A stretch of DNA of 64,000 nucleotides. It comes from Patescibacteria group bacterium. Its GTDB lineage: Bacteria > Patescibacteriota > Microgenomatia > UBA10105 > UBA927. Position 1 is the first letter of the stretch. Each line of letters starts with the position of its first letter. The notes under the pieces are model-generated. The model saw only the letters and a list, made by a program, of their open reading frames with translations. It was not told the DNA's origin and ran no database searches. This document shows, piece by piece, positions 3,682 through 16,384 of this stretch. Location: positions 311,032 to 375,031 of the forward strand of contig JBMOPU010000012.1 in the NCBI GenBank assembly GCA_049322955.1, read 5' to 3'. Position numbers and translations under genes: made by a program.

Positions 3682-3749
3682 CCAAAAATTCCTCTTGCTT
3701 CCTCCGTATAACTCGGTATACTTAAGTGGCACGTTTGGAGTGCACGTCT

Positions 3750-6284
3750 ATGTCAGATAAGTATCCGCATGTCGAAATTGAGGCTAAATGGCAGAAGACC
3801 TGGAGTGATGAAAAAGTCTATACCATTGACCTTGCAAAGGCTAAAAAGCCGTTCTATAACCTCATGATGTTTCCGTATCCTTCTGCGGAAGGCTTGCATG
3901 TCGGCAATATGTATGCATTCACCGGGACTGATATATACGGACGTTTCATGCGCATGCAAGGGTATGATGTATTTGAGCCGATCGGTCTCGACGGCTTTGG
4001 TATCCATAGTGAGAATTATGCGTTTAAAGTAGGAAAACACCCGGTAGAACAAGCGAAACGCAGTGAACAGAACTTCTATCGTCAACTTTCGCTCATAGGG
4101 TCCATGTATGACTGGTCCCGAACGGTGGAGACGTATGATCCCGGATATTATCGGTGGACGCAGTGGTTGTTTGTCCAGATGTTTCGTCACGGACTCGCAT
4201 ATCGCGCAAAAGCGGAGGTGAATTGGTGCCCTTCGTGTAAAACGGTCTTGGCCGATGAACAGGTGATTGAAGAAAAATGCGAAAGATGCGGGAATATTGT
4301 CACAAAAAGAGCATTAGAACAGTGGTTTTTTAGAATTACCGCATATGCGGGAAAACTGCTGGAAAATATTTCGAAGCTAAAATGGTCAGAAAAAGTATTG
4401 GTTGCCCAAGAGCATTGGATCGGGAAAAAAGAGGGGATTAACATCACCTACCCCGTTGTGGACGAAAAAGGAAACAATATTGGCGAGGTTATATGTTTTA
4501 CTACAAGACCGGATACCAATTTTGGTGCCACATTCATCGTTTTGGCTCCCGAGCACCCCTTTATCAGTACCATTGAAAGAGTGATAAAAAAGGAAAATCT
4601 TGCTCTGTTGCGCCAATATATAAAAGAAACCCAAAAAATGTCTTCCGAGGATCGTATCGCGCAGGGGAGAAAAAAGACAGGAGTTGCTACGGGTTTGTAC
4701 TGTATTAATCAACTTACAGGACAAAAGGTTCCTCTTTATATCTCCGATTTCGTCGTGATGGGAGTGGGTACGGGGGCTGTTGTTGGTGTCCCGGGACATG
4801 ATCTCCGAGATTTTGAGTTTGCGCAATCCATGGGATTACCGGTTGTCCGTGTGGTTGTGGGTGCAGACGGAAATACAGGTCCCATTACGAAACCGGACCA
4901 GGTACAGGAGGATGAAGGTATCATGATTAACTCCGATTTTCTGGATGGGGTGGCGATAACAGAAGCCATCGAAAAGATGAAAGATCATTTAGAACAAAAA
5001 GGCTGGGGAAAGCGTGTCACTACGTATCATTTGCGAGATTGGCTCATCAGTCGTCAACGATATTGGGGTCCTCCCATACCGATGATCCGTTGCGGTACGT
5101 GTGAGAAGGCCGGCAAAGGAGAACGTGCCGACATGCCGGGCTGGTACACTGTTCCGGATGATCAGCTACCGGTGACGCTTCCCGTTATTGAAGATTATAA
5201 ACCGGGAGATGACGGGGTTGCTCCTCTTGCAAAACATAAGGAATTCTATGAAACTACCTGTCCCGGATGCGGAGGCAAAGCAACCAGAGAGACGGATGTT
5301 TCTGATACATTTTTAGATAGTTCGTGGTACTTTTTACGATATCCTTCCGTCGGTTCTTTGACGGCTGATACTAGTCCATTTGATCCCGCACTCACGAAAC
5401 AATGGCTACCGGTAAGCATGTACACCGGAGGAGCAGAGCATAGTGTTCTGCATCTTATGTACAGCAGATTTGTGACCATGGCGCTCAAGGAGTGGGGGTA
5501 TCTTGATTTTGATGAGCCGTTTCCAAACTTTTTTGCGCATGGACTGGTGATCAAAGAGGGCGCCAAGATGAGCAAAAGTAAAGGAAACGTCGTCAATCCC
5601 GATGAGTATATCAAACTATATGGAACAGATGCTCTGCGGATGTATCTTATGTTCATGGGACCCTTCTCCGAAGGAGGAGATTTTCGGGATACGGGGATGG
5701 AGGGGATGTCCCGATGGGTCGGAAGAGTTTGGCGCATGGCAACAGCCTCATTAGAATCTGGCACTGCCATTGATACGAGTGCTGTCGTACTGAAATCGCT
5801 TCATAAAACCATCAAGAAGGTAGGTGAGGATACCGCCAAAAGACATTACAATACGGCAATCGCGGCCATGATGGAGTTCACAAATTTGGTGAATGACCAT
5901 GGTGGCACTCTTCCTGTGCCGTTGCTAAAAATGTTTCTGCTTATTCTGGCGCCCTATGCGCCGCATCTTGCCGAGGAACTTTGGTCGCGTGCCGAGGCAG
6001 TTGAACACGGTGATGCAAAAGGGAACGCGTTCCGATCCATTCACCAACAGTCTTGGCCGGTTTTTGATCCGCAATATCTTACCGAAGAGAGTATTACCGT
6101 TGTGGTGCAGGTAAATGGCAAAACAAAAGGATCAATAGTGATTGATACGGAAAGTGCTAGTTTTCAAGAAAAAATTGAGGCCGCTGTCCGTGATTCGGCA
6201 AAAATGCGGAAGTATATTGAAGCGGGTGACATCCGTAAAATAATCTTTGTTCCCGGAAGGCTTATCAACTTTGTCCTCTCCTGA
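3750..6284 (+). CDS. leuS: Leucyl-tRNA synthetase
   Basis: Class I aaRS HIGH-type motif (HVGNMYAFTGTD), KMSKS motif (KMSKSKGNVV), and LeuS-typical WCPSCKTVLADEQV editing/zinc region. The MSDKYPHVEIEAKWQKTW start at ATG 3750 is in frame with the track ORF 3726..6284. Confidence 0.95.
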   Translation: MSDKYPHVEIEAKWQKTWSDEKVYTIDLAKAKKPFYNLMMFPYPSAEGLHVGNMYAFTGTDIYGRFMRMQGYDVFEPIGLDGFGIHSENYAFKVGKHPVEQAKRSEQNFYRQLSLIGSMYDWSRTVETYDPGYYRWTQWLFVQMFRHGLAYRAKAEVNWCPSCKTVLADEQVIEEKCERCGNIVTKRALEQWFFRITAYAGKLLENISKLKWSEKVLVAQEHWIGKKEGINITYPVVDEKGNNIGEVICFTTRPDTNFGATFIVLAPEHPFISTIERVIKKENLALLRQYIKETQKMSSEDRIAQGRKKTGVATGLYCINQLTGQKVPLYISDFVVMGVGTGAVVGVPGHDLRDFEFAQSMGLPVVRVVVGADGNTGPITKPDQVQEDEGIMINSDFLDGVAITEAIEKMKDHLEQKGWGKRVTTYHLRDWLISRQRYWGPPIPMIRCGTCEKAGKGERADMPGWYTVPDDQLPVTLPVIEDYKPGDDGVAPLAKHKEFYETTCPGCGGKATRETDVSDTFLDSSWYFLRYPSVGSLTADTSPFDPALTKQWLPVSMYTGGAEHSVLHLMYSRFVTMALKEWGYLDFDEPFPNFFAHGLVIKEGAKMSKSKGNVVNPDEYIKLYGTDALRMYLMFMGPFSEGGDFRDTGMEGMSRWVGRVWRMATASLESGTAIDTSAVVLKSLHKTIKKVGEDTAKRHYNTAIAAMMEFTNLVNDHGGTLPVPLLKMFLLILAPYAPHLAEELWSRAEAVEHGDAKGNAFRSIHQQSWPVFDPQYLTEESITVVVQVNGKTKGSIVIDTESASFQEKIEAAVRDSAKMRKYIEAGDIRKIIFVPGRLINFVLS

Positions 6285-8872: not shown

Positions 8873-9301
8873 CTACCACCACGACTGGTTGGGGAAAAAA
8901 TGTTCCTCTACCGCAAGATCATATTCCTGTTCACTGTCATATTTTTCATACCAGGAAAGAATTGTTTCCAGTTGGTGGCGTCTGAGCCTGGTCATGCGGT
9001 CAACCCATGATATTTCCGAATCCAGTATGCCGCGAAGAATATCCCGGTTAACAAATTGCGGTGCGGATGCGTTCTTTGCCGATGTGTGCGCCGCTTCTGC
9101 GGCTTTGGCGATCGTTTCGATTGCGTCGTCGTCATATCGCATGTTTCGCAACAGTGTGGGAATACGTCTGTTCCGTTTTGTTTCGAGGGCCAGGGCGGCC
9201 GCCTGGGCGGTAACCGATGCGGGGTAGTTACGGCTCACATCGCTAAACAGACGCATCGCTTCTTGGTGTTTTGATGGAAGGCGCGAATGATATCGTTCCA
9301 T
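8873..9301 (-). CDS. Hypothetical protein
   Basis: 142-aa ORF whose sequence looks protein-like, whereas the overlapping plus ORF 8802..9227 is low-complexity; convergent with comEC. Confidence 0.45.
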   Translation of the reverse strand: MERYHSRLPSKHQEAMRLFSDVSRNYPASVTAQAAALALETKRNRRIPTLLRNMRYDDDAIETIAKAAEAAHTSAKNASAPQFVNRDILRGILDSEISWVDRMTRLRRHQLETILSWYEKYDSEQEYDLAVEEHFFPNQSWW

Positions 9302-9379
9302 TGTTCAACGTCCCTTTTGGTCGGGGAATGAAGATATTTTACGATATCTTTTGATCACTTGACAACATGTACATCCTGT

Positions 9380-9645
9380 AGTAAAGTATTCGCACAAGTG
9401 AATAGGCGATGATGGTGTCGAGCACCGGAGCCGGTTTCTGAAGAAAGGATCCCTCCTCATCGGCGGGAGACAAGTAAGAAACAGTAGTTGAGGGAAAAGA
9501 TATCTTCCGTCAAGGCATATACGGGGATTTTTTGTTTTTTTACAAAACAATCTTTTCCGAACTTGGGGTGGCACCACGCGAACACACGTCCCCTTGGACT
9601 TCTCTCGGTCTTTACCGGGAGAGATCCAAGGGGATTTTTTGTGGG
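9380..9645 (+). promoter_or_regulatory. T-box-like riboswitch leader (antiterminator/terminator) upstream of the argH-argG-TCase-TCase-argS cluster
   Basis: tGGGGUGGCACCaCGCG at 9564-9580 resembles the T-box consensus AGGGUGGNACCGCG. It can form an antiterminator: helix GGGG(9565-68)/CCCC(9590-93) with a 7-nt bulge UGGCACC (= consensus UGGNACC). It overlaps a competing terminator hairpin UCCCCUUGGA...UCCAAGGGG followed by UUUUUU (9590-9640). Stem I and the specifier loop are not resolved. Confidence 0.4.
9590..9640 (+). terminator. Intrinsic terminator hairpin of the leader (attenuator)
   Basis: ccccttgga...tccaagggg stem followed by the T6 run at 9635-9640, 35 nt before the argH start. Confidence 0.5.
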
Positions 9646-9674
9646 TTTGATGACACGGTAACGTATCAAAAATT

Positions 9675-11198
9675 ATGAAAACTCAACCGATGACAACGTT
9701 ATGGGGAAGCGCATTTACACAAATGCCGTCAGGTGCGGTGCTGTCTTTTACCGCGGGGCGTGATACCGCCGATATTCCCATGGCCGACACGGCGCTATTG
9801 CCGTATGACGTCTGGGTGAACACCGCCCATGTCGTCATGCTCGCCAAAACCAAATGTATCCCCGTGGGTTCTGCAACAAAACTTCTTTCCGGTCTTGCGG
9901 CACTGGAAAAACTTGTTGATGCGGGCAAATTTCCCCTGGATCCTCTCAAGGAAGACGTCCACACCAACGTCGAAGCATGGTTAACCGAGGAGTTGGGAAG
10001 CGCTGTTGCGGGCACGCTCCACACGGCAAGAAGCAGAAATGATCAGATCGTTTGCGATATGCGACTCTTCATGCGGGACGGGGCGATAACGGTTATTGAA
10101 AATACCCTGGTGCTCATCAAGACATTGCTTGCCAAAGCCGAAAAAACAAAAGGAATAGTCATGCCGGGTTTTACGCATCATCAGCATGCCATGGTGACGA
10201 CGTTGGGGCATGTATTGTCGGGATTTGCGGCTATGTTGCTTCGTGATGTCGAACGTTTTGAAGCGTGGTACGAACGGTATAACCATAGCCCGTTGGGCAA
10301 TATGGCATCGTACGGGACAAGTTATCCCATTGATAAAAAAATGACGGCCGAGTGTCTGGGGTTTGACGGCCCCGACTATCATTCGATCGATGCCATTACC
10401 AACCGCTGGGAGGCGGAAGCGGATTTGGCATTTGCCGTAACGGTGCTTATGAACCACCTCTCGACCGTTTCAGAAACCCTTGTCCTGCTTTCGATGACGG
10501 AATTCGGCATGGTGACGATACACGAAACATATAGTACGGGAAGCTCGGTGATGCCGCAGAAGAAAAATCCCGATGTGCTGGAGGTCGTTAAAGGGAAAGC
10601 CGCACTGGTAAGCGGGCAACTGATGAGTCTTGTCGCCCTGGGTAAAGGATCCTTCATCGGCTATAACCGGGATTCACAGTGGGCAAAATATATCATCATG
10701 GATGTTTTGCGCGAGTGTAGTGCCGCTCCCGTGCTCATTTCCGGGGTAATCGGGACAATGACCGTCAATGAGAAAGCAATGGCATCGTGGTGTCACACAG
10801 GAGGCATCGGTGCGACGGTACTTATGGAACAACTTGCGCAGACCTCCAGGCTTCCTCTGCGTCAGGCTAAAACGGTGGTGGAACAGGCGATAAAGGAGTG
10901 CGGCAATACGGGGACGATCACCCATTCTTCCCTTATTGGCGCCATGAAAGACCAATCGCGTACCTCTTTTCCTCCCGCGGCAGAACAGGTGATGGCCTGG
11001 CAGGATCCGCATACGATGGTGGGGTTGATGAAATCACTGGGAAGCCCCGGCAAGAAAAGTATGAAAACGGTACTAAAAAAGCTTACGCGAACTCTGCATC
11101 AGGATATAACTTGGCTCGGGAAGCAAAAACAACACCTCCACGAGGCAAAAGCGAAGCTGAACGATATGAAGGCCGCGTTGATGAAAGGAGGTGAATAA
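9675..11198 (+). CDS. argH: Argininosuccinate lyase
   Basis: Fumarate-lyase family signature GSSVMPQKKNPD and ArgH-like N-terminal region (LPYDVWVNTAHVVML). Confidence 0.9.
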   Translation: MKTQPMTTLWGSAFTQMPSGAVLSFTAGRDTADIPMADTALLPYDVWVNTAHVVMLAKTKCIPVGSATKLLSGLAALEKLVDAGKFPLDPLKEDVHTNVEAWLTEELGSAVAGTLHTARSRNDQIVCDMRLFMRDGAITVIENTLVLIKTLLAKAEKTKGIVMPGFTHHQHAMVTTLGHVLSGFAAMLLRDVERFEAWYERYNHSPLGNMASYGTSYPIDKKMTAECLGFDGPDYHSIDAITNRWEAEADLAFAVTVLMNHLSTVSETLVLLSMTEFGMVTIHETYSTGSSVMPQKKNPDVLEVVKGKAALVSGQLMSLVALGKGSFIGYNRDSQWAKYIIMDVLRECSAAPVLISGVIGTMTVNEKAMASWCHTGGIGATVLMEQLAQTSRLPLRQAKTVVEQAIKECGNTGTITHSSLIGAMKDQSRTSFPPAAEQVMAWQDPHTMVGLMKSLGSPGKKSMKTVLKKLTRTLHQDITWLGKQKQHLHEAKAKLNDMKAALMKGGE

Positions 11199-11200
11199 CT

Positions 11201-12448
11201 ATGAAACAACAAACAACGTATCAAAAGGTCGCCTCATATGAGGCGAAAAAAGGAAAAATTAAAAAAGTGTTATTACTCTATAGCGGCGGACTTGATACAA
11301 GCGTCATGCTCAAATGGATCATCGATACCTACGGTGTCGAGGTGATTACGCTTACCATGGACTTGGGACAACAGGGGGATGATCTTCTCGCCATTCAAAA
11401 AAAAGCGCGCAAATTCGGTGCAAAGAAAGCAATTGTCATGGATGTGAAAGATGAATTCGCGGAAAAGTATATAAGTTGGGGGATTAAGGCAAACGCCAGT
11501 TATCAGGGCGAGTATCACCTTTCTACCCCCATCGGTCGTGCCATAACGGCGGCCAAGGCTATTGAGGTGGCGGCCATGGTGGGCGCCGATGTCGTGGCAC
11601 ACGGCTGTACCGGAAAAGGGAATGATCAGGTGCGGTTCGAGGGCTATATGTTAGCGCTTAATCCCGCAATCAAAATCATCGCGCCCGTTCGTGAATGGAA
11701 CATGGACAGGAATGAAGAAATCGCGTATGCGGAAAAACACGGGATTCCCGTGCCCGCATCCGTCGATTTTCCCTACAGCGTTGATGACAATATGTGGGGA
11801 ATGACCTGGGAAGGCGGGGAGATTGAAGACCCGAAGTATATTCCCAAGATAGAAAAATTTTTGACGACCTATACGCTTGCCAAGCATGCTCCTGATACCG
11901 AAGAGTTTGTCACAATCACCTTCACAAAAGGTATTCCGACAAAGCTCAACGGGAAGTCTATGAAACTTGCTTCTCTTATTACCGCGTTAAACGGTATTGC
12001 AGGCAAACACGGGGTCGGGGTTGTCCATCTGGTCGAGGATCGGTTGATCGGGTTAAAAGACCGCGGGGTCTATGAGTTGCCTGCGGGACACGTCATTATC
12101 AGTGCCCATAAGGCGCTCGAACAATACGTATCGACAAGGGATCTCAATGAGTTGAAAAATCAGCTCGACATCAAATGGGCATATCTTTGTTATGGTGCGA
12201 AATGGTTTGATCCTGTTATGACGGCAATCAATGCGTTCAACGATACCGTCAATAAGATGGTAAGCGGGGAAGTAACCGTGAAGTTGTATAAAGGTACGGC
12301 GACCGTGGTTGCCATGCAATCGCCGTATGCGATGCACCATGCATCATTTACGACCGCCGGAGGCTACCAGTACAATGTGAATGCCAGCGCGGGATTTATC
12401 GAGGTGTACTCACTGCAGATGAAGCTCGCCAACCAGCGGAGAACATAA
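11201..12448 (+). CDS. argG: Argininosuccinate synthase
   Basis: PP-loop motif VLLLYSGGLDTSVMLKWI plus ArgG-like downstream blocks; starts 3 nt after argH. Confidence 0.9.
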   Translation: MKQQTTYQKVASYEAKKGKIKKVLLLYSGGLDTSVMLKWIIDTYGVEVITLTMDLGQQGDDLLAIQKKARKFGAKKAIVMDVKDEFAEKYISWGIKANASYQGEYHLSTPIGRAITAAKAIEVAAMVGADVVAHGCTGKGNDQVRFEGYMLALNPAIKIIAPVREWNMDRNEEIAYAEKHGIPVPASVDFPYSVDDNMWGMTWEGGEIEDPKYIPKIEKFLTTYTLAKHAPDTEEFVTITFTKGIPTKLNGKSMKLASLITALNGIAGKHGVGVVHLVEDRLIGLKDRGVYELPAGHVIISAHKALEQYVSTRDLNELKNQLDIKWAYLCYGAKWFDPVMTAINAFNDTVNKMVSGEVTVKLYKGTATVVAMQSPYAMHHASFTTAGGYQYNVNASAGFIEVYSLQMKLANQRRT

Positions 12449-12514
12449 TGAAGGGAATCCGGAAAGGGAGGTTCTCGAGGCCTCCCGCTCCGGTACGACG
12501 AAGAAAGGAGTACG

Positions 12515-13507
12515 ATGAAGCTATCACTCAAAGGAAAAGATTTTATTGCAGAACAGGAATGGAGCAAAGCAGAGCTTCAGGCCGCTATTTCTTTGGCAAT
12601 CACCCTAAAGAAGAAATTTCGCCTGAAACAGCCGACCCCATATCTATTGCATCAAACGCTCTATCTGTTATTTTTTTTCAGCTCAACCCGGACGCGCACC
12701 AGTTTTGAAGCGGCGATGGATCACTTGGGCGGTAACTCGCATGATCTTACCCCCGACAAGCTCCAGATTGCCCATGGAGATACGCCGAAAGAGATAGGAA
12801 AGATTCTTTCTTCCTACGGGCATGGCATTGCCATACGGCATTGTGATTGGGGCGAAGGGAATGCGTATATCCGTGAGGTTGCCAAACACTCGACGGCGCC
12901 GGTTTTTAACATGCAGTGCGATATCTACCATCCGTTTCAAGCAATGGCAGACCTTATGACGATTCTTGAAAAGAAAAAAACGGTAAAGAACAAAAAAATC
13001 GTCATGTCCTGGGCGTACGCCAATAGCTACACCAAGCCGATATCGGTGCCGCAGTCGTTTTTGTTGCTTTTGACGAAATTCGGTGCGGATATTACGCTGG
13101 CACATCCTAAAGAGTTTATGCTCATGCCCGAGGTTATGGCGCAGGCGACGGAGAACGCCAGGCAAACGGGAGGGTCGGTCGCCGTGACCCATAGCATGGA
13201 AGAAGCATTTACCGACGCGGATGTGGTCTATCCCAAAAGCTGGGGACCGCTCGTTACGACGAGTGACCCCAAAAAATGCACGCGCATTGCGGCAAAATAC
13301 AAACACTGGATATGTGACGAACGGATGATGAGGTTAGCCAAAAAAGATGCCATTTATATGCACTGTCTGCCTGCCGATCGCGGGGTGGAGGTAACGGATG
13401 CCGTTATTGATGGTGCACAATCGGTAGTGTATGATCAGGCGGAAAATCGAATGCATGTACAAAAAGCGATTCTCGCGCTTACCATGGGGAATAAAAAATT
13501 GATATAA
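12515..13507 (+). CDS. Transcarbamylase of the YgeW-like/'unknown TCase' type: carbamoyl-phosphate motifs intact, ornithine SMG loop replaced
   Basis: STRTRTSFE, HPFQ and HCLPADRG are present, but DxxxSMG is replaced by YPKSWGP. IAHGDT and NAYIREV are as I recall for E. coli YgeW (from memory). SD GAAAGGAG lies 6 nt upstream. Confidence 0.8.
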   Translation: MKLSLKGKDFIAEQEWSKAELQAAISLAITLKKKFRLKQPTPYLLHQTLYLLFFFSSTRTRTSFEAAMDHLGGNSHDLTPDKLQIAHGDTPKEIGKILSSYGHGIAIRHCDWGEGNAYIREVAKHSTAPVFNMQCDIYHPFQAMADLMTILEKKKTVKNKKIVMSWAYANSYTKPISVPQSFLLLLTKFGADITLAHPKEFMLMPEVMAQATENARQTGGSVAVTHSMEEAFTDADVVYPKSWGPLVTTSDPKKCTRIAAKYKHWICDERMMRLAKKDAIYMHCLPADRGVEVTDAVIDGAQSVVYDQAENRMHVQKAILALTMGNKKLI

Positions 13508-13511
13508 CCGT

Positions 13512-14474
13512 ATGAAACAAAAACAACTTCTTTCCATTACTGATCTTTCCCGCCGGGATATCCTGGATATCTTGGCGATTGCCGCAAAGCTGAAGCGACA
13601 GCTCAAGAAAACCGGCAAAAATCGTCCGGTGCTGAAAGGAAAAACACTGATACACATTTATGAGAAGCCGAGTCTACGGACGCACGCATCATTTGATATC
13701 GGTATGTTTCAGCTCGGAGGGCATGCCCTGTATTTGGGACCCGAGCATATCGGATTAGGCGTGCGCGAGCCTGTGGAACATGCCGCAAATGTCTTGTCCC
13801 GTATGGGCAACGTTATTATGGCGCGGGTCTATCGTCATGAGACCGTGACGGAACTTGCCGAGCATTCGCTCGTTCCCGTCATCAACGGACTTTCCGACCG
13901 TGAGCACCCGTGCCAGATCCTTGCTGATCTTATGACCATGGTCGAACACAAGAAACGCCTGACCGGTCTTCGTGTCGCATTTATAGGGGACGGGGAAAAC
14001 AACGTCACCCATTCGCTTGCTCTTGCCTGCGGCTTATTAGGGATGCATTTCGTTGCCGCCAGTCCTAAAGGATACAAAATGAACAAAACCATATCAGAAA
14101 TGGCAAAAAAACTGGCCGCAACGTATGGGGGGTCAGTTACCGAAGTGGTCGATCCCGTTGCCGCGGTGAAAGATGCCGACGTCGTCTATACCGATACCTG
14201 GATTTCCATGGGAGACGAAAAACAGAAAAAAACCCGGCTTTCCGCATTTGCCAAATATCAGGTCAACGATCGCCTGATGCATAAAGCCAAGCCTGATGCG
14301 ATTTTTATGCACGATATGCCCGCTTATCTTGAAAATGAGGTAACGCCATCGGTATTTAACGGCGTGCAATCCGTGGTATATGATCAAGCGGAGAATCGAT
14401 TGCATGCACAAAAAGGGCTCCTGGTGTTTTTGCTCAGGGGAAAATCGGGAAAGAAGGAAAAGAAGAAGGGATGA
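13512..14474 (+). CDS. Ornithine-carbamoyltransferase-like paralog with degenerate carbamoyl-phosphate motifs
   Basis: Collinear with ArgI/ArgF: HPCQ and the ornithine loop DTWISMGDE are conserved, but STRTR is SLRTH and HCLP is HDMP. Confidence 0.8.
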   Translation: MKQKQLLSITDLSRRDILDILAIAAKLKRQLKKTGKNRPVLKGKTLIHIYEKPSLRTHASFDIGMFQLGGHALYLGPEHIGLGVREPVEHAANVLSRMGNVIMARVYRHETVTELAEHSLVPVINGLSDREHPCQILADLMTMVEHKKRLTGLRVAFIGDGENNVTHSLALACGLLGMHFVAASPKGYKMNKTISEMAKKLAATYGGSVTEVVDPVAAVKDADVVYTDTWISMGDEKQKKTRLSAFAKYQVNDRLMHKAKPDAIFMHDMPAYLENEVTPSVFNGVQSVVYDQAENRLHAQKGLLVFLLRGKSGKKEKKKG

Positions 14475-14533
14475 CGGTGTGTATATGGTTTGCCGAAAAT
14501 CTCGCCAAAGGGGGGCGTGATAGAATATATTCT

Positions 14534-16384
14534 ATGAAACTTGCACTGGAACAATTATTTACCAAGGTACTTGCCACTATGGACGTTGTCGATGTCCCTC
14601 CCGCGGTTATGGCAACCGAAGACGCAACGCTCGGCGACTACACCACCAATGTTGCCCTGCGACTTGCAAAACCGCTGAAAAAATCTCCGAAAGACGTTGC
14701 ACTACAGGTTAAAAACATTCTTGATTCGGCAATTAAAGCGGTTAGGCACGATGATGGTGATCATAATATGTCAGATAGCAATCAAAATAGTGCATGGATA
14801 CCGGAGATGAAAAGCGTGCTACAGGATATTGATAGGATAGAGGTGGCGGGTCCGGGCTTTCTCAACCTCTTTGTGACCGAAGCAAGCCTAAGCACTTCAG
14901 TAAATCGAGTGCTAAAAGATGGGGAGCGCTATGGAACAAGCTCCGCAGGTACTCACCCTCAGGCGGGCAGGCAACAACCTATCGTGTTGAAGCTGGACGG
15001 TATCGCAAACCCCGGTCCGAAGCGGGTCATGGTAGAGTTTGCGCATCCCAATACGCACAAAGCCTTCCACATCGGTCATTTGCGCAATATAACGACCGGA
15101 GAGAGTCTGGTGCGACTCCTTGAAGCTACCGGGCACGAAGTGGTGCGCGCCAATTATCAAGGTGATGTGGGGATGCATATTGCCAAATGCCTTTGGGCGA
15201 TGACGCACTTAGCCGATTGCAATCCGGACTCCGTGCGCGGCAAGGAAATTCATGTCCGGGTTGAGTTTTTGGGGAAGGCATATGCCGCGGGAAGTACCCG
15301 CTATGAAACGGATGAAACGGTAAAAAAAGAAACGGGCGACATCAACAAGCAAATTTATGCCAAGGATCCGGTTATCTACCCTCTCTATCAGGAAACACGG
15401 TCATGGAGCCTTGAATATTTTGACGGGATATATAAGCGGGTCGGCACACACTATGATCGGTTCTACTTTGAGAGTGAGTTTTACGAGAAAGGGAAAGCAT
15501 TTGTGGCAGACGGGGTAAAAAAGGGGATTTTTGTCGAAAGTGACGGGGCAATCATTTTCCCGGGAGAAAAATACGGCCTGCATAATCGGGTATTTATCAC
15601 CAAAGAAGGGAACGCCACGTACGAAGGGAAGGAAATCGGGTTGGGGAGGGCACAGTTTGATGAATATCAGCCCGACCTTGTCATGCATGTGGTGGGTCCT
15701 GAACAGGCAGGATATTTCCAGGTGTTATTTGCGGCACTTGCCCGTATGTTCCCCGATACCGAAGGAAAGGAATATCATAAAAAATACGGTTGGGTGAAAT
15801 TAAAGCACGGCAAAATGAGTAGCCGCACCGGGCAGGTGGTACTGGGGGAATGGTTACTTGATGAGGCAAAGAAATCAATCTATGAGATACTAAAACAAAA
15901 TAAATCAAAATATACCAAAGAAGAACAGGATGACATTGCCGAAAAAGGGGCGATTGCCGCGGTGAAATATGCGTTTCTGCGCGTGGGCACCGATCAGGAA
16001 ATTGCGTTTGATCTCAAGGAATCCGTCGCGTTTGACGGAGACTCCGGTCCGTATCTTCTGTATTCATATGCCCGCTGTAACAGTGTGTTGAAAAAAGCGG
16101 GAAGTAACGGCAGTATTGCCGCGGACACGGTGTTCAACACTGAGGAACGCGCTCTTGCGCGATTTTTGAGCTTTTTTCCCGATCTGGTCTCCGATGCCGC
16201 CGCGAACCTATCACCCAATATACTGTGCACCTATTTATATAGGCTGACCTCGTTGTTTAATGTGTTCTACCAGAAGCATCCGATAGCCGAAACACCGCAT
16301 CGCTTAGCACTTACGGCGGCGTGTGCCCAAGTGGTACATAACGGATTATCCCTTTTGGGTATTTCGACGGTAGAGAGGATGTAA
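14534..16384 (+). CDS. argS: Arginyl-tRNA synthetase
   Basis: Class I HIGH motif (HIGHLRNITTGE), KMSSRTG, and C-terminal DALR anticodon-binding region. The MKLALEQLF start at 14534 is in frame with track ORF 14471..16384; ATG 14471 overlaps the upstream stop (ATGA). Confidence 0.9.
   Translation: MKLALEQLFTKVLATMDVVDVPPAVMATEDATLGDYTTNVALRLAKPLKKSPKDVALQVKNILDSAIKAVRHDDGDHNMSDSNQNSAWIPEMKSVLQDIDRIEVAGPGFLNLFVTEASLSTSVNRVLKDGERYGTSSAGTHPQAGRQQPIVLKLDGIANPGPKRVMVEFAHPNTHKAFHIGHLRNITTGESLVRLLEATGHEVVRANYQGDVGMHIAKCLWAMTHLADCNPDSVRGKEIHVRVEFLGKAYAAGSTRYETDETVKKETGDINKQIYAKDPVIYPLYQETRSWSLEYFDGIYKRVGTHYDRFYFESEFYEKGKAFVADGVKKGIFVESDGAIIFPGEKYGLHNRVFITKEGNATYEGKEIGLGRAQFDEYQPDLVMHVVGPEQAGYFQVLFAALARMFPDTEGKEYHKKYGWVKLKHGKMSSRTGQVVLGEWLLDEAKKSIYEILKQNKSKYTKEEQDDIAEKGAIAAVKYAFLRVGTDQEIAFDLKESVAFDGDSGPYLLYSYARCNSVLKKAGSNGSIAADTVFNTEERALARFLSFFPDLVSDAAANLSPNILCTYLYRLTSLFNVFYQKHPIAETPHRLALTAACAQVVHNGLSLLGISTVERM

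Follow-up and report, generated by a model that had tools for sequence, protein, structure and literature searches.

What controls an operon in which the final genes of arginine synthesis are joined to argS, the gene for arginine--tRNA ligase, in a bacterium of the Patescibacteria? The question is raised by a leader of about 240 nt at positions 9401-9640 (plus strand) of the stretch analysed here (64,000 nucleotides of contig JBMOPU010000012.1, assembly GCA_049322955.1, positions 311,032 to 375,031; hereafter the window), which lies 5' of the genes argH-argG-carbamoyltransferase-argF-argS. An earlier, sequence-only reading had proposed a T-box-like antiterminator just 5' of argH, and every part that it described was found at its place. 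Comparison with related leaders indicates that the leader is very probably a tRNA-Arg-responsive T-box riboswitch acting by transcription attenuation. The promoter and the parts of the leader are as follows.

9359-9387, plus strand: promoter of sigma-70 type, with the -35 element TTGACA at 9359-9364, a 17-nt spacer and the -10 element TAAAGT at 9382-9387.
9405-9432, plus strand: ultrashort Stem I of 28 nt, consisting of a kink-turn (K-turn), a 5-bp helix and a terminal loop.
9419-9421, plus strand: specifier codon CGA (Arg), preceded by U9418, followed by the purine G9422 and unusually placed in the terminal loop.
9434-9482, plus strand: Stem II, starting one nt after Stem I, with the basal helix GUUUCU/AGAAAC, an internal loop and a variable top hairpin.
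9490-9561, plus strand: Stem III domain, consisting of GAG (9490-9492), P3, P3a, P3b and a 3' RAA (GAA at 9559-9561).
9493-9501 with 9550-9558, plus strand: P3, the closing helix of this domain, GGAAAAGAU with AUCUUUUCC, equated with Stem III by cmscan.
9505-9526, plus strand: P3a, an inner hairpin with the conserved loop CAAGGC.
9533-9549, plus strand: P3b, an inner hairpin.
9565-9593, plus strand: antiterminator, with helix A1 formed by GGGG (9565-9568) and CCCC (9590-9593).
9569-9575, plus strand: T-box bulge UGGCACC, 7 nt, matching UGGNACC.
9576-9589, plus strand: A2 helix ACGCG[AACA]CACGU, closed by an A-U pair.
9589-9634, plus strand: intrinsic terminator UCCCCUUGGA-C-UUCUCUCGGU [CUUU] ACCGGGAGAG-A-UCCAAGGGGA, followed by U6 at 9635-9640.

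The leader matches the T-box family RF00230 over 9400-9596 at full model length (40.1 bits, Rfam cmscan), with E=1.5e-7 in a local scan and E=2.1e-5 over all 64 kb, where it is the sole match with E<0.1. The match anticipated by the sequence-only reading is thus significant, although its score stands well under the curated threshold. No T-box was found at E<0.1 for leuS (3726-6284), which is encoded in the same window. An RNA-OUT match at 9308-9377 (E=0.08) was weak and probably due to chance, and the terminator hairpin had matches to miRNA families (E of about 1), which were likewise set aside as chance.

Leaders for comparison were gathered from contigs encoding ArgH relatives and by a metagenome-wide pattern scan, in which just two parts, the K-turn and the beginning of Stem II, were specified and 11-31 nt of any sequence could stand between the two K-turn halves. 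The ArgH homologues belong to Patescibacteria, or Candidate Phyla Radiation (CPR), lineages (Gottesmanbacteria, Microgenomates, WWE3 and Parcubacteria), and the synteny leuS-comEA-comEC-MBL ... argH is common to the window, Candidatus Gottesmanbacteria GCA_001780985.1 and Microgenomates GCA_049287205.1. An ArgH search of genome contigs yielded, among the matches listed, only sequences of at most 40% identity from other phyla, and no useful loci.

Thirteen distinct leaders were segmented by hand and each was verified against its own sequence. A plain MAFFT alignment of the leaders put a divergent group (loci L089, L097 and L103) out of register in Stem III, and pairs were counted in an N-padded alignment with truncated loops. 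Across the 13 leaders 98.2% of 542 cells were paired and 31 of 48 pairs had changed on both sides, counts that lean towards the structure because the alignment was fitted to it in helices of variable length. None of 500 shuffles reached the observed values of pairing and covariation, and slid controls were about 50% paired. The leader has been kept, through compensatory changes, in relatives of only 50-60% ArgH identity. It was absent from L084, the ArgH of which is 72% identical and where the upstream open reading frame (ORF) abuts argH, and from L107, a Parcubacteria arg cluster with an operon that lacks argS, and no T-box lay within 3 kb in any of 20 argH loci scanned from Firmicutes or Actinobacteria.

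The promoter has 10 of 12 consensus matches in a consensus scan, and TTGACA-N16/17-TAnAnT is kept 5' of every related leader. The likely transcript start would accordingly fall near 9394, 5' of the whole T-box element, as the sequence-only reading needs it to. A promoter-like site on the minus strand (TTGTCA-N18-TAAAAT, 9336-9365) overlaps the -35 element of this promoter and would serve a divergent ORF of 142 aa (8873-9301), which has no family match.

The antiterminator corresponds to what the sequence-only reading had described, namely a GGGG/CCCC A1 helix, a bulge equal to UGGNACC and a short A2. The T-box sequence UUGGGGUGGCACCACGCG (9563-9580) was aligned by cmscan with high posterior probability and is unvarying or compensated in relatives; A1 covaries (GGGG/CCCC, AAAGG/CCUUU and UAGG/CCUA), as does A2. 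The partner tRNA-Arg would be expected to carry the anticodon UCG or ICG, and its discriminator base is predicted to be G73 for leaders with UGGC in the bulge and A73 for those with UGGU (L104 and L110).

The terminator is formed of two 10-bp segments (about 20 bp) separated by a 1x1 mismatch and capped by the loop CUUU. Since CCCC at 9590-9593 is common to A1 and to the 5' strand of the terminator, the two folds are mutually exclusive. The stretch that runs from the T-box through the U-tract takes the terminator fold, with an energy of -41 kcal/mol (z = -6.3, reached by 0 of 200 shuffles), and the fold energies are about -6.5 kcal/mol for the antiterminator alone versus -35 to -41 kcal/mol for the terminator. 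Pairing reaches 91% in the outer and 98% in the inner terminator helix, with compensatory changes in L089, L097 and L103. The exclusivity of a weak antiterminator and a strong terminator with U6, as first proposed, is thus borne out by the shared strand, by the energies and by covariation of both folds.

Eleven of the 13 aligned leaders, the otherwise diverged L103 among them, have the same inner half of the terminator (9600-9623, UUCUCUCGGU-CUUU-ACCGGGAGAG), and where the stem covaries (L089, L097, L108 and L109) the loop is still CUUU. To judge from these sequences, such conservation exceeds what a terminator needs.

Stem I begins with a K-turn composed of a 3-bp C-stem (GGC/GCC), a 3-nt bulge (GAU) and tandem G.A pairs (GAU-GA opposite GA), and continues as the 5-bp helix UGGUG/CACCG, capped by the 5-nt loop UCGAG. 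We take the arrangement GGC-GAU-GA / GA-GCC to resemble the Kt-7 K-turn. Columns 1-32, which cover Stem I, are gap-free natural sequence in the 13 leaders and are paired in 100% of cells, with compensatory changes in four of the five helix pairs (UGGUG/CACCG, UCCAU/AUGGG and UGGAU/AUCCG) and in one of the three C-stem pairs. The loop UCGAG is unvarying in 15 leaders, and all 12 matches of the metagenome pattern scan, in which 11-31 nt of any sequence could have stood at this place, were the same 15-nt hairpin with the loop UCGAG.

The register of the codon within this loop is fixed by three more remote lineages. L106 (Microgenomates) and L108 (Patescibacteria) carry a small distal hairpin inserted directly 5' of UCGAG, which thereby comes to lie in the 3' strand of an internal loop just above the helix of the K-turn, the canonical position of codon and purine. 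L104 (WWE3) has a Stem I of about 52 nt with the internal loop ...GAA-CGA-G-CC, in which cmscan puts CGA in the Specifier columns and the next G in the conserved purine column. The ultrashort hairpin of L110, CCGGA[GUCGCGA]UCCGG, shows U-CGC-G, in which CGC is another Arg codon. The specifier of the window is, on this evidence, CGA at 9419-9421, and its U and purine flanks make the context appear anticodon-loop-like. The sequence-only reading had expected a Stem I with a CGN or AGA codon; the K-turn and the Arg codon agree with it, and the stem itself proved to be an ultrashort 28-nt hairpin rather than a canonical one of about 90 nt.

Stem II has an internal loop with GAAGAAA (9440-9446) opposite AAGUA (9472-9476), both of which are unvarying and correspond to an S-turn / purine string; presumably they fit the loop-E consensus AGUA/GAA. 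Its basal helix is 97% paired and compensated, with an A-U pair in L087, GAAAUC/GAUUUC in L106 and GAAGCU/AGCUUC in L109, and its top varies in length and sequence while always keeping a hairpin fold. Similar hairpin modules recur at differing places, in the Stem II tops of L092 and L103, at L089:7801-7826 and in the downstream region of L101, with CCUGAGCUUGUCGAAGG in one set and CCCGCGAAGCUUAAGCGAAGUGGG in another, which suggests a shared insertable hairpin.

Stem III of the window is enlarged, P3 closing a three-way junction with P3a and P3b. The GAG 5' of P3 and the RAA 3' of it are kept in all leaders, in agreement with the 5' purine string (RRRxG) and 3' AA that flank Stem III in T-boxes. 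P3 is 100% paired, with compensatory changes in eight of nine pairs; both sides have changed in six of six pairs of P3b and, for P3a, in two of six pairs according to the pair-counting tool or three of eight in the per-helix table. The minimum free energy (MFE) fold of the isolated domain gives the same three-way junction in the window, L089, L101 and L103, places the second inner hairpin elsewhere in L097, and L106 has a simple hairpin where the window has the junction. The gap between Stem II and Stem III is only about 10 nt across the leaders (7-9 nt plus GAG) and 9-10 nt in the window and in L106, where it is just AAAAAUGAG.

A pseudoknot between CAAGG and UUUUG within the junction is possible, both strands being unvarying. 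Other pairings were tried and rejected. The P3a-loop CAAGG pairs perfectly with CCUUG of the terminator 5' strand in the window, and this is lost in L097 and L103; pairing of the linker UUGA with UCAA of the P3a loop is lost in L089 and L103; and local hairpins such as GGAA...UUCC, which RNAfold prefers with flanking UUGA, cannot form together with the covarying P3 and P3a. Two copies of the 13-mer GGGGAUUUUUUGU lie in the window, one at 9523-9535 after P3a and one at 9630-9642 at the end of the main terminator; owing to the former, P3a resembles a mid-leader pause hairpin or weak terminator. In L094 (5150-5260, minus strand) a palindromic insert, absent from the window, lies inside the Stem III junction.

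The genes that follow the leader are those given by the sequence-only reading (argH, argG, two carbamoyltransferases and argS), an order now backed by family-profile scores and a domain search.

9675-11198, plus strand: argH, argininosuccinate lyase (TIGR00838, 342 bits against a cutoff of 279.5).
11201-12448, plus strand: argG, argininosuccinate synthase (NF001770, 484 bits against a cutoff of 334).
12515-13507, plus strand: divergent carbamoyltransferase paralogue (OTCace_N and OTCace domains).
13512-14474, plus strand: argF, ornithine carbamoyltransferase (NF001986, 388 bits against a cutoff of 306).
14471-16384, plus strand: argS, arginine--tRNA ligase, with which the operon ends (TIGR00456, 344 bits against a cutoff of 261.65).

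Operons of the relatives include argH-argG-(carbamoyltransferases)-argS, argH-argG-EamA-argS, unknown-BtpA-argS, ornithine carbamoyltransferase-B3/4-argS and arginine deiminase-M20-argH-argG-argS. Across them argS is the last gene, and it is the only gene found downstream of every fully sequenced related leader. Together with the Arg codon CGA, this supports the earlier proposal of a tRNA-Arg-specific T-box over an operon ending in argS.

The product of 12515-13507 falls under both curated cutoffs (256 against 306 for ornithine carbamoyltransferase and 252 against 288 for acetylornithine carbamoyltransferase), and this divergent gene is retained beside a bona fide argF in L081, L086 and L087. 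In WWE3 the T-box at L104:2404-2690, with specifier CGA and UGGU, precedes genes for arginine deiminase and an M20 peptidase and then argH-argG-argS; it would be odd for a catabolic arginine deiminase to stand under a switch turned on by uncharged tRNA-Arg. At L110:3397-3728 (minus strand) a transfer-messenger RNA (tmRNA) gene (104 bits) and smpB lie just 5' of the T-box and argG-argH-argS.

Regulation of the operon may be pictured as follows. Transcription would begin near 9394, and the nascent RNA would fold the ultrashort Stem I, the terminal loop of which would offer the Arg codon (U-CGA-G) to the tRNA-Arg anticodon, while the S-turn / purine string of Stem II would support the pairing of codon and anticodon, as in actinobacterial ileS T-boxes. 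If the tRNA-Arg is uncharged, its 3' GCCA would pair with UGGC of the bulge and stabilise the weak antiterminator, allowing RNA polymerase to read through into argH-argG-carbamoyltransferase-argF-argS. If the tRNA is charged or absent, the more stable terminator would form and transcription would stop at the U-tract (9635-9640). The conserved GAUUUUUUGU (9527-9536), the bases of which are unvarying, lies directly 3' of P3a, and one might speculate that the two together form a transcriptional pause giving the tRNA time to bind, or a relocated pseudoknot.

Several observations weigh against a tRNA-Arg-responsive T-box. Stem I has no distal platform (IDTM), and a IIA/B pseudoknot (F-box) was not detected in the interval from Stem II to Stem III. 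In all UGGC-type leaders A2 is closed by an A-U pair and not by the canonical G.U steric sensor. ARAGORN found no tRNA gene, and hence no tRNA-Arg, in the window or in the CPR loci L081-L110. The RF00230 score of 40.1 bits lies under the gathering score of 93, so that a default Rfam scan of the window returns nothing. This low score is attributable to the ultrashort Stem I, 71 Stem I model positions being deleted in the cmscan alignment, and related leaders behave alike, scoring 35-56 bits or, in L089, L094, L102, L103 and L108, going undetected at E<0.01; such CPR leaders would therefore go unannotated by standard pipelines.

The sub-threshold score also leaves room for the idea that an ordinary terminator happens to stand beside a chance resemblance to a T-box, an explanation that appears effectively refuted by the comparative data, given the E-value over the whole window and covariation, with conservation, across at least 16 independent leaders. 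The missing elbow-binding platform and the lack of a IIA/B pseudoknot at the usual position speak instead for a degenerate relic, in which the truncated Stem I no longer decodes and the leader is a constitutive or protein- or NusA-modulated attenuator, or senses any uncharged tRNA 3' end with G73; deprived of Stem II and the pseudoknot, truncated Stem I shows scarcely any detectable tRNA binding (PMC7583486, section 8; PMC10651847). Such decay seems unlikely, because UCGAG, the K-turn and GAAGAAA/AAGUA are unvarying at 50-60% ArgH identity while the helices around them compensate, which argues for selection on the decoding module, and because the sole codon change is to another Arg codon (CGC in L110).

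Nor is the terminal hairpin likely to gate ribosome access. All characterised T-boxes with short or ultrashort Stem I, the actinobacterial ileS leaders, act on translation (PMC7583486; PMC11297988), and a translational or combined transcriptional and translational control could be expected here by analogy. A GC-rich stem of about 20 bp followed directly by U5-7 is, however, present in every related leader, and no Shine-Dalgarno sequence lies inside the hairpin. Between terminator and start codon the gap spans less than 10 nt (L089 and L109) at one extreme, 35 nt in the window and about 300 nt (L108) at the other, the longer gaps holding unrelated, non-homologous insertions, so the hairpin does not appear to sequester a ribosome-binding site, and we regard this form of control as quite improbable. 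It is very improbable that the specifier is a triplet other than CGA, whether UCG (Ser), GAG (Glu) or a codon elsewhere in the leader. The 5-nt loop does hold three overlapping triplets, and UCG is kept in both UCGAG and GUCGCGA, but every operon is arginine-related with argS last, the GAG register would become GCG (Ala) in L110, cmscan assigns CGA and the following G of L104 to the Specifier and purine columns, and the codon, purine, 5-bp helix and K-turn GA of L106 and L108 reproduce canonical Specifier-loop geometry.

A tRNA-Arg-responsive T-box that works through a terminator would share much with the canonical transcriptional T-boxes (RF00230; tyrS and glyQS of B. subtilis). It has the UGGNACC bulge between A1 and A2 and an intrinsic terminator that excludes the antiterminator fold, a Stem I that starts from a K-turn and has codon and purine just 5' of the helix above this K-turn, a Stem III between a 5' purine run (GAG) and a 3' AA, and a synthetase gene of matching specificity; the features matched here (discriminator, K-turn, codon-purine and the purine and AA flanks of Stem III) are tabulated in PMC7583486. 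It differs from them in its Stem I, which is 28 nt long where theirs measures about 90 nt, shows the codon in a terminal loop and leaves just 5 nt between the helix strands, in the lack of the Specifier-loop S-turn, AG bulge and distal loop/IDTM platform, in the A-U closure of A2, in the three-way junction of Stem III and in the 40 bits against 93, and is best regarded as a divergent member of the T-box family.

The nearest described architecture is that of the actinobacterial ileS T-boxes (Nocardia farcinica 6UFM; Mycobacterium tuberculosis 6UFG; Sherwood et al. 2015 per PMC7583486 and PMC10651847), a comparison that rests on reviews and on the residue numbering in PMC10651847. Both have a Stem I of about 30 nt without an elbow platform, a long Stem II directly after it with an S-turn / purine string, and extra insertions in Stem III and A2, which are called typical of the ileS class (PMC7583486). 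Unlike that class, the leader ends in an intrinsic terminator and not in a Shine-Dalgarno sequestrator, has no detected IIA/B pseudoknot right after Stem II, specifies Arg (CGA) and not Ile (AUC), belongs to Patescibacteria and not Actinobacteria, and controls a biosynthetic operon as well as a synthetase.

Arg T-boxes upstream of argS in Firmicutes have, as far as is known, the canonical long Stem I architecture. Such T-boxes, for example in Bacillus cereus (PMC2494555), share with the leader its Arg specificity and the regulation of argS, which here, unlike there, is the last of 3-5 genes and is preceded by the final steps of arginine synthesis. The sequence-only reading had called Arg-specific T-boxes rare, and on this point it needs correction, since they are established on Firmicute argS and the specificity is not itself new. 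Its remark that T-boxes had not been reported in CPR-like genomes agrees with the open-access literature, in which no publication that connects T-boxes to CPR, Patescibacteria or Saccharibacteria was found (absence of evidence only). The TBDB database ran its short-Stem-I model only in Actinobacteria and truncated class I hits.

What sets the leader apart appears to be its form, that of an unusually reduced terminator-type T-box kept across several CPR lineages. In transcriptional T-boxes the IDTM is called essential because tRNA has to be captured before the polymerase arrives at the terminator and the IDTM hastens this (PMC7583486, section 6.2), the platform is said to be dispensable, for kinetic reasons, only in translational T-boxes (PMC7583486), which face no time limit and need the IIA/B pseudoknot's help (PMC7583486; PMC10651847), and the IIA/B pseudoknot is indispensable to tRNA binding in ileS T-boxes with ultrashort Stem I (PMC10651847). 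An ultrashort Stem I coupled to an intrinsic terminator, with no pseudoknot at the usual place, is thus a natural test of the platform rule (PMC7583486; PMC10651847), and on sequence grounds the CPR leader family is a counter-example to it. The family may tentatively be viewed as a third T-box class, possibly confined to Patescibacteria, which would combine terminator control with decoding by the Stem II S-turn and a hairpin of 28 nt that resembles an anticodon loop, in the absence of elbow platform and IIA/B pseudoknot; the help that is then missing, kinetic or geometric, could come from the enlarged Stem III junction. If such a class exists, transcriptional T-boxes can work without the platform, and CPR bacteria have in T-boxes an unrecognised layer of regulation.

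These leaders point to RNA-based sensing of tRNA charging in the reduced genomes of CPR/Patescibacteria, the regulation of which is almost unstudied, and retention of the last steps of arginine synthesis in CPR is notable in itself. With about 170 nt ahead of the terminator, the leader offers a compact engineering template, and a dedicated covariance model could uncover more of its kind beyond the 18 or so leaders found.

Two minor observations concern repeats. The palindromic insert that L094 has inside its Stem III junction, some 40-100 nt long (GGCUGUUAACGAGCGAAUUCGUAUUCGCGAG..., a second hairpin often coming after it), recurs between the terminator and argH in several relatives, with sites at L085:2694-2795, L087:7861-8000 and L108:5735-5800, 3' of the terminator in L092 and L099, and in L103; it resembles a small mobile or repeat element. 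At the start of the window, positions 1-1900 hold GGTGGGACC eight times and have 58% G+C and a strong AT skew, GGTGGNACC having 12 matches in the window against about two expected, and the ORF at 18-1550 probably encodes a repetitive glycine/threonine-rich protein.

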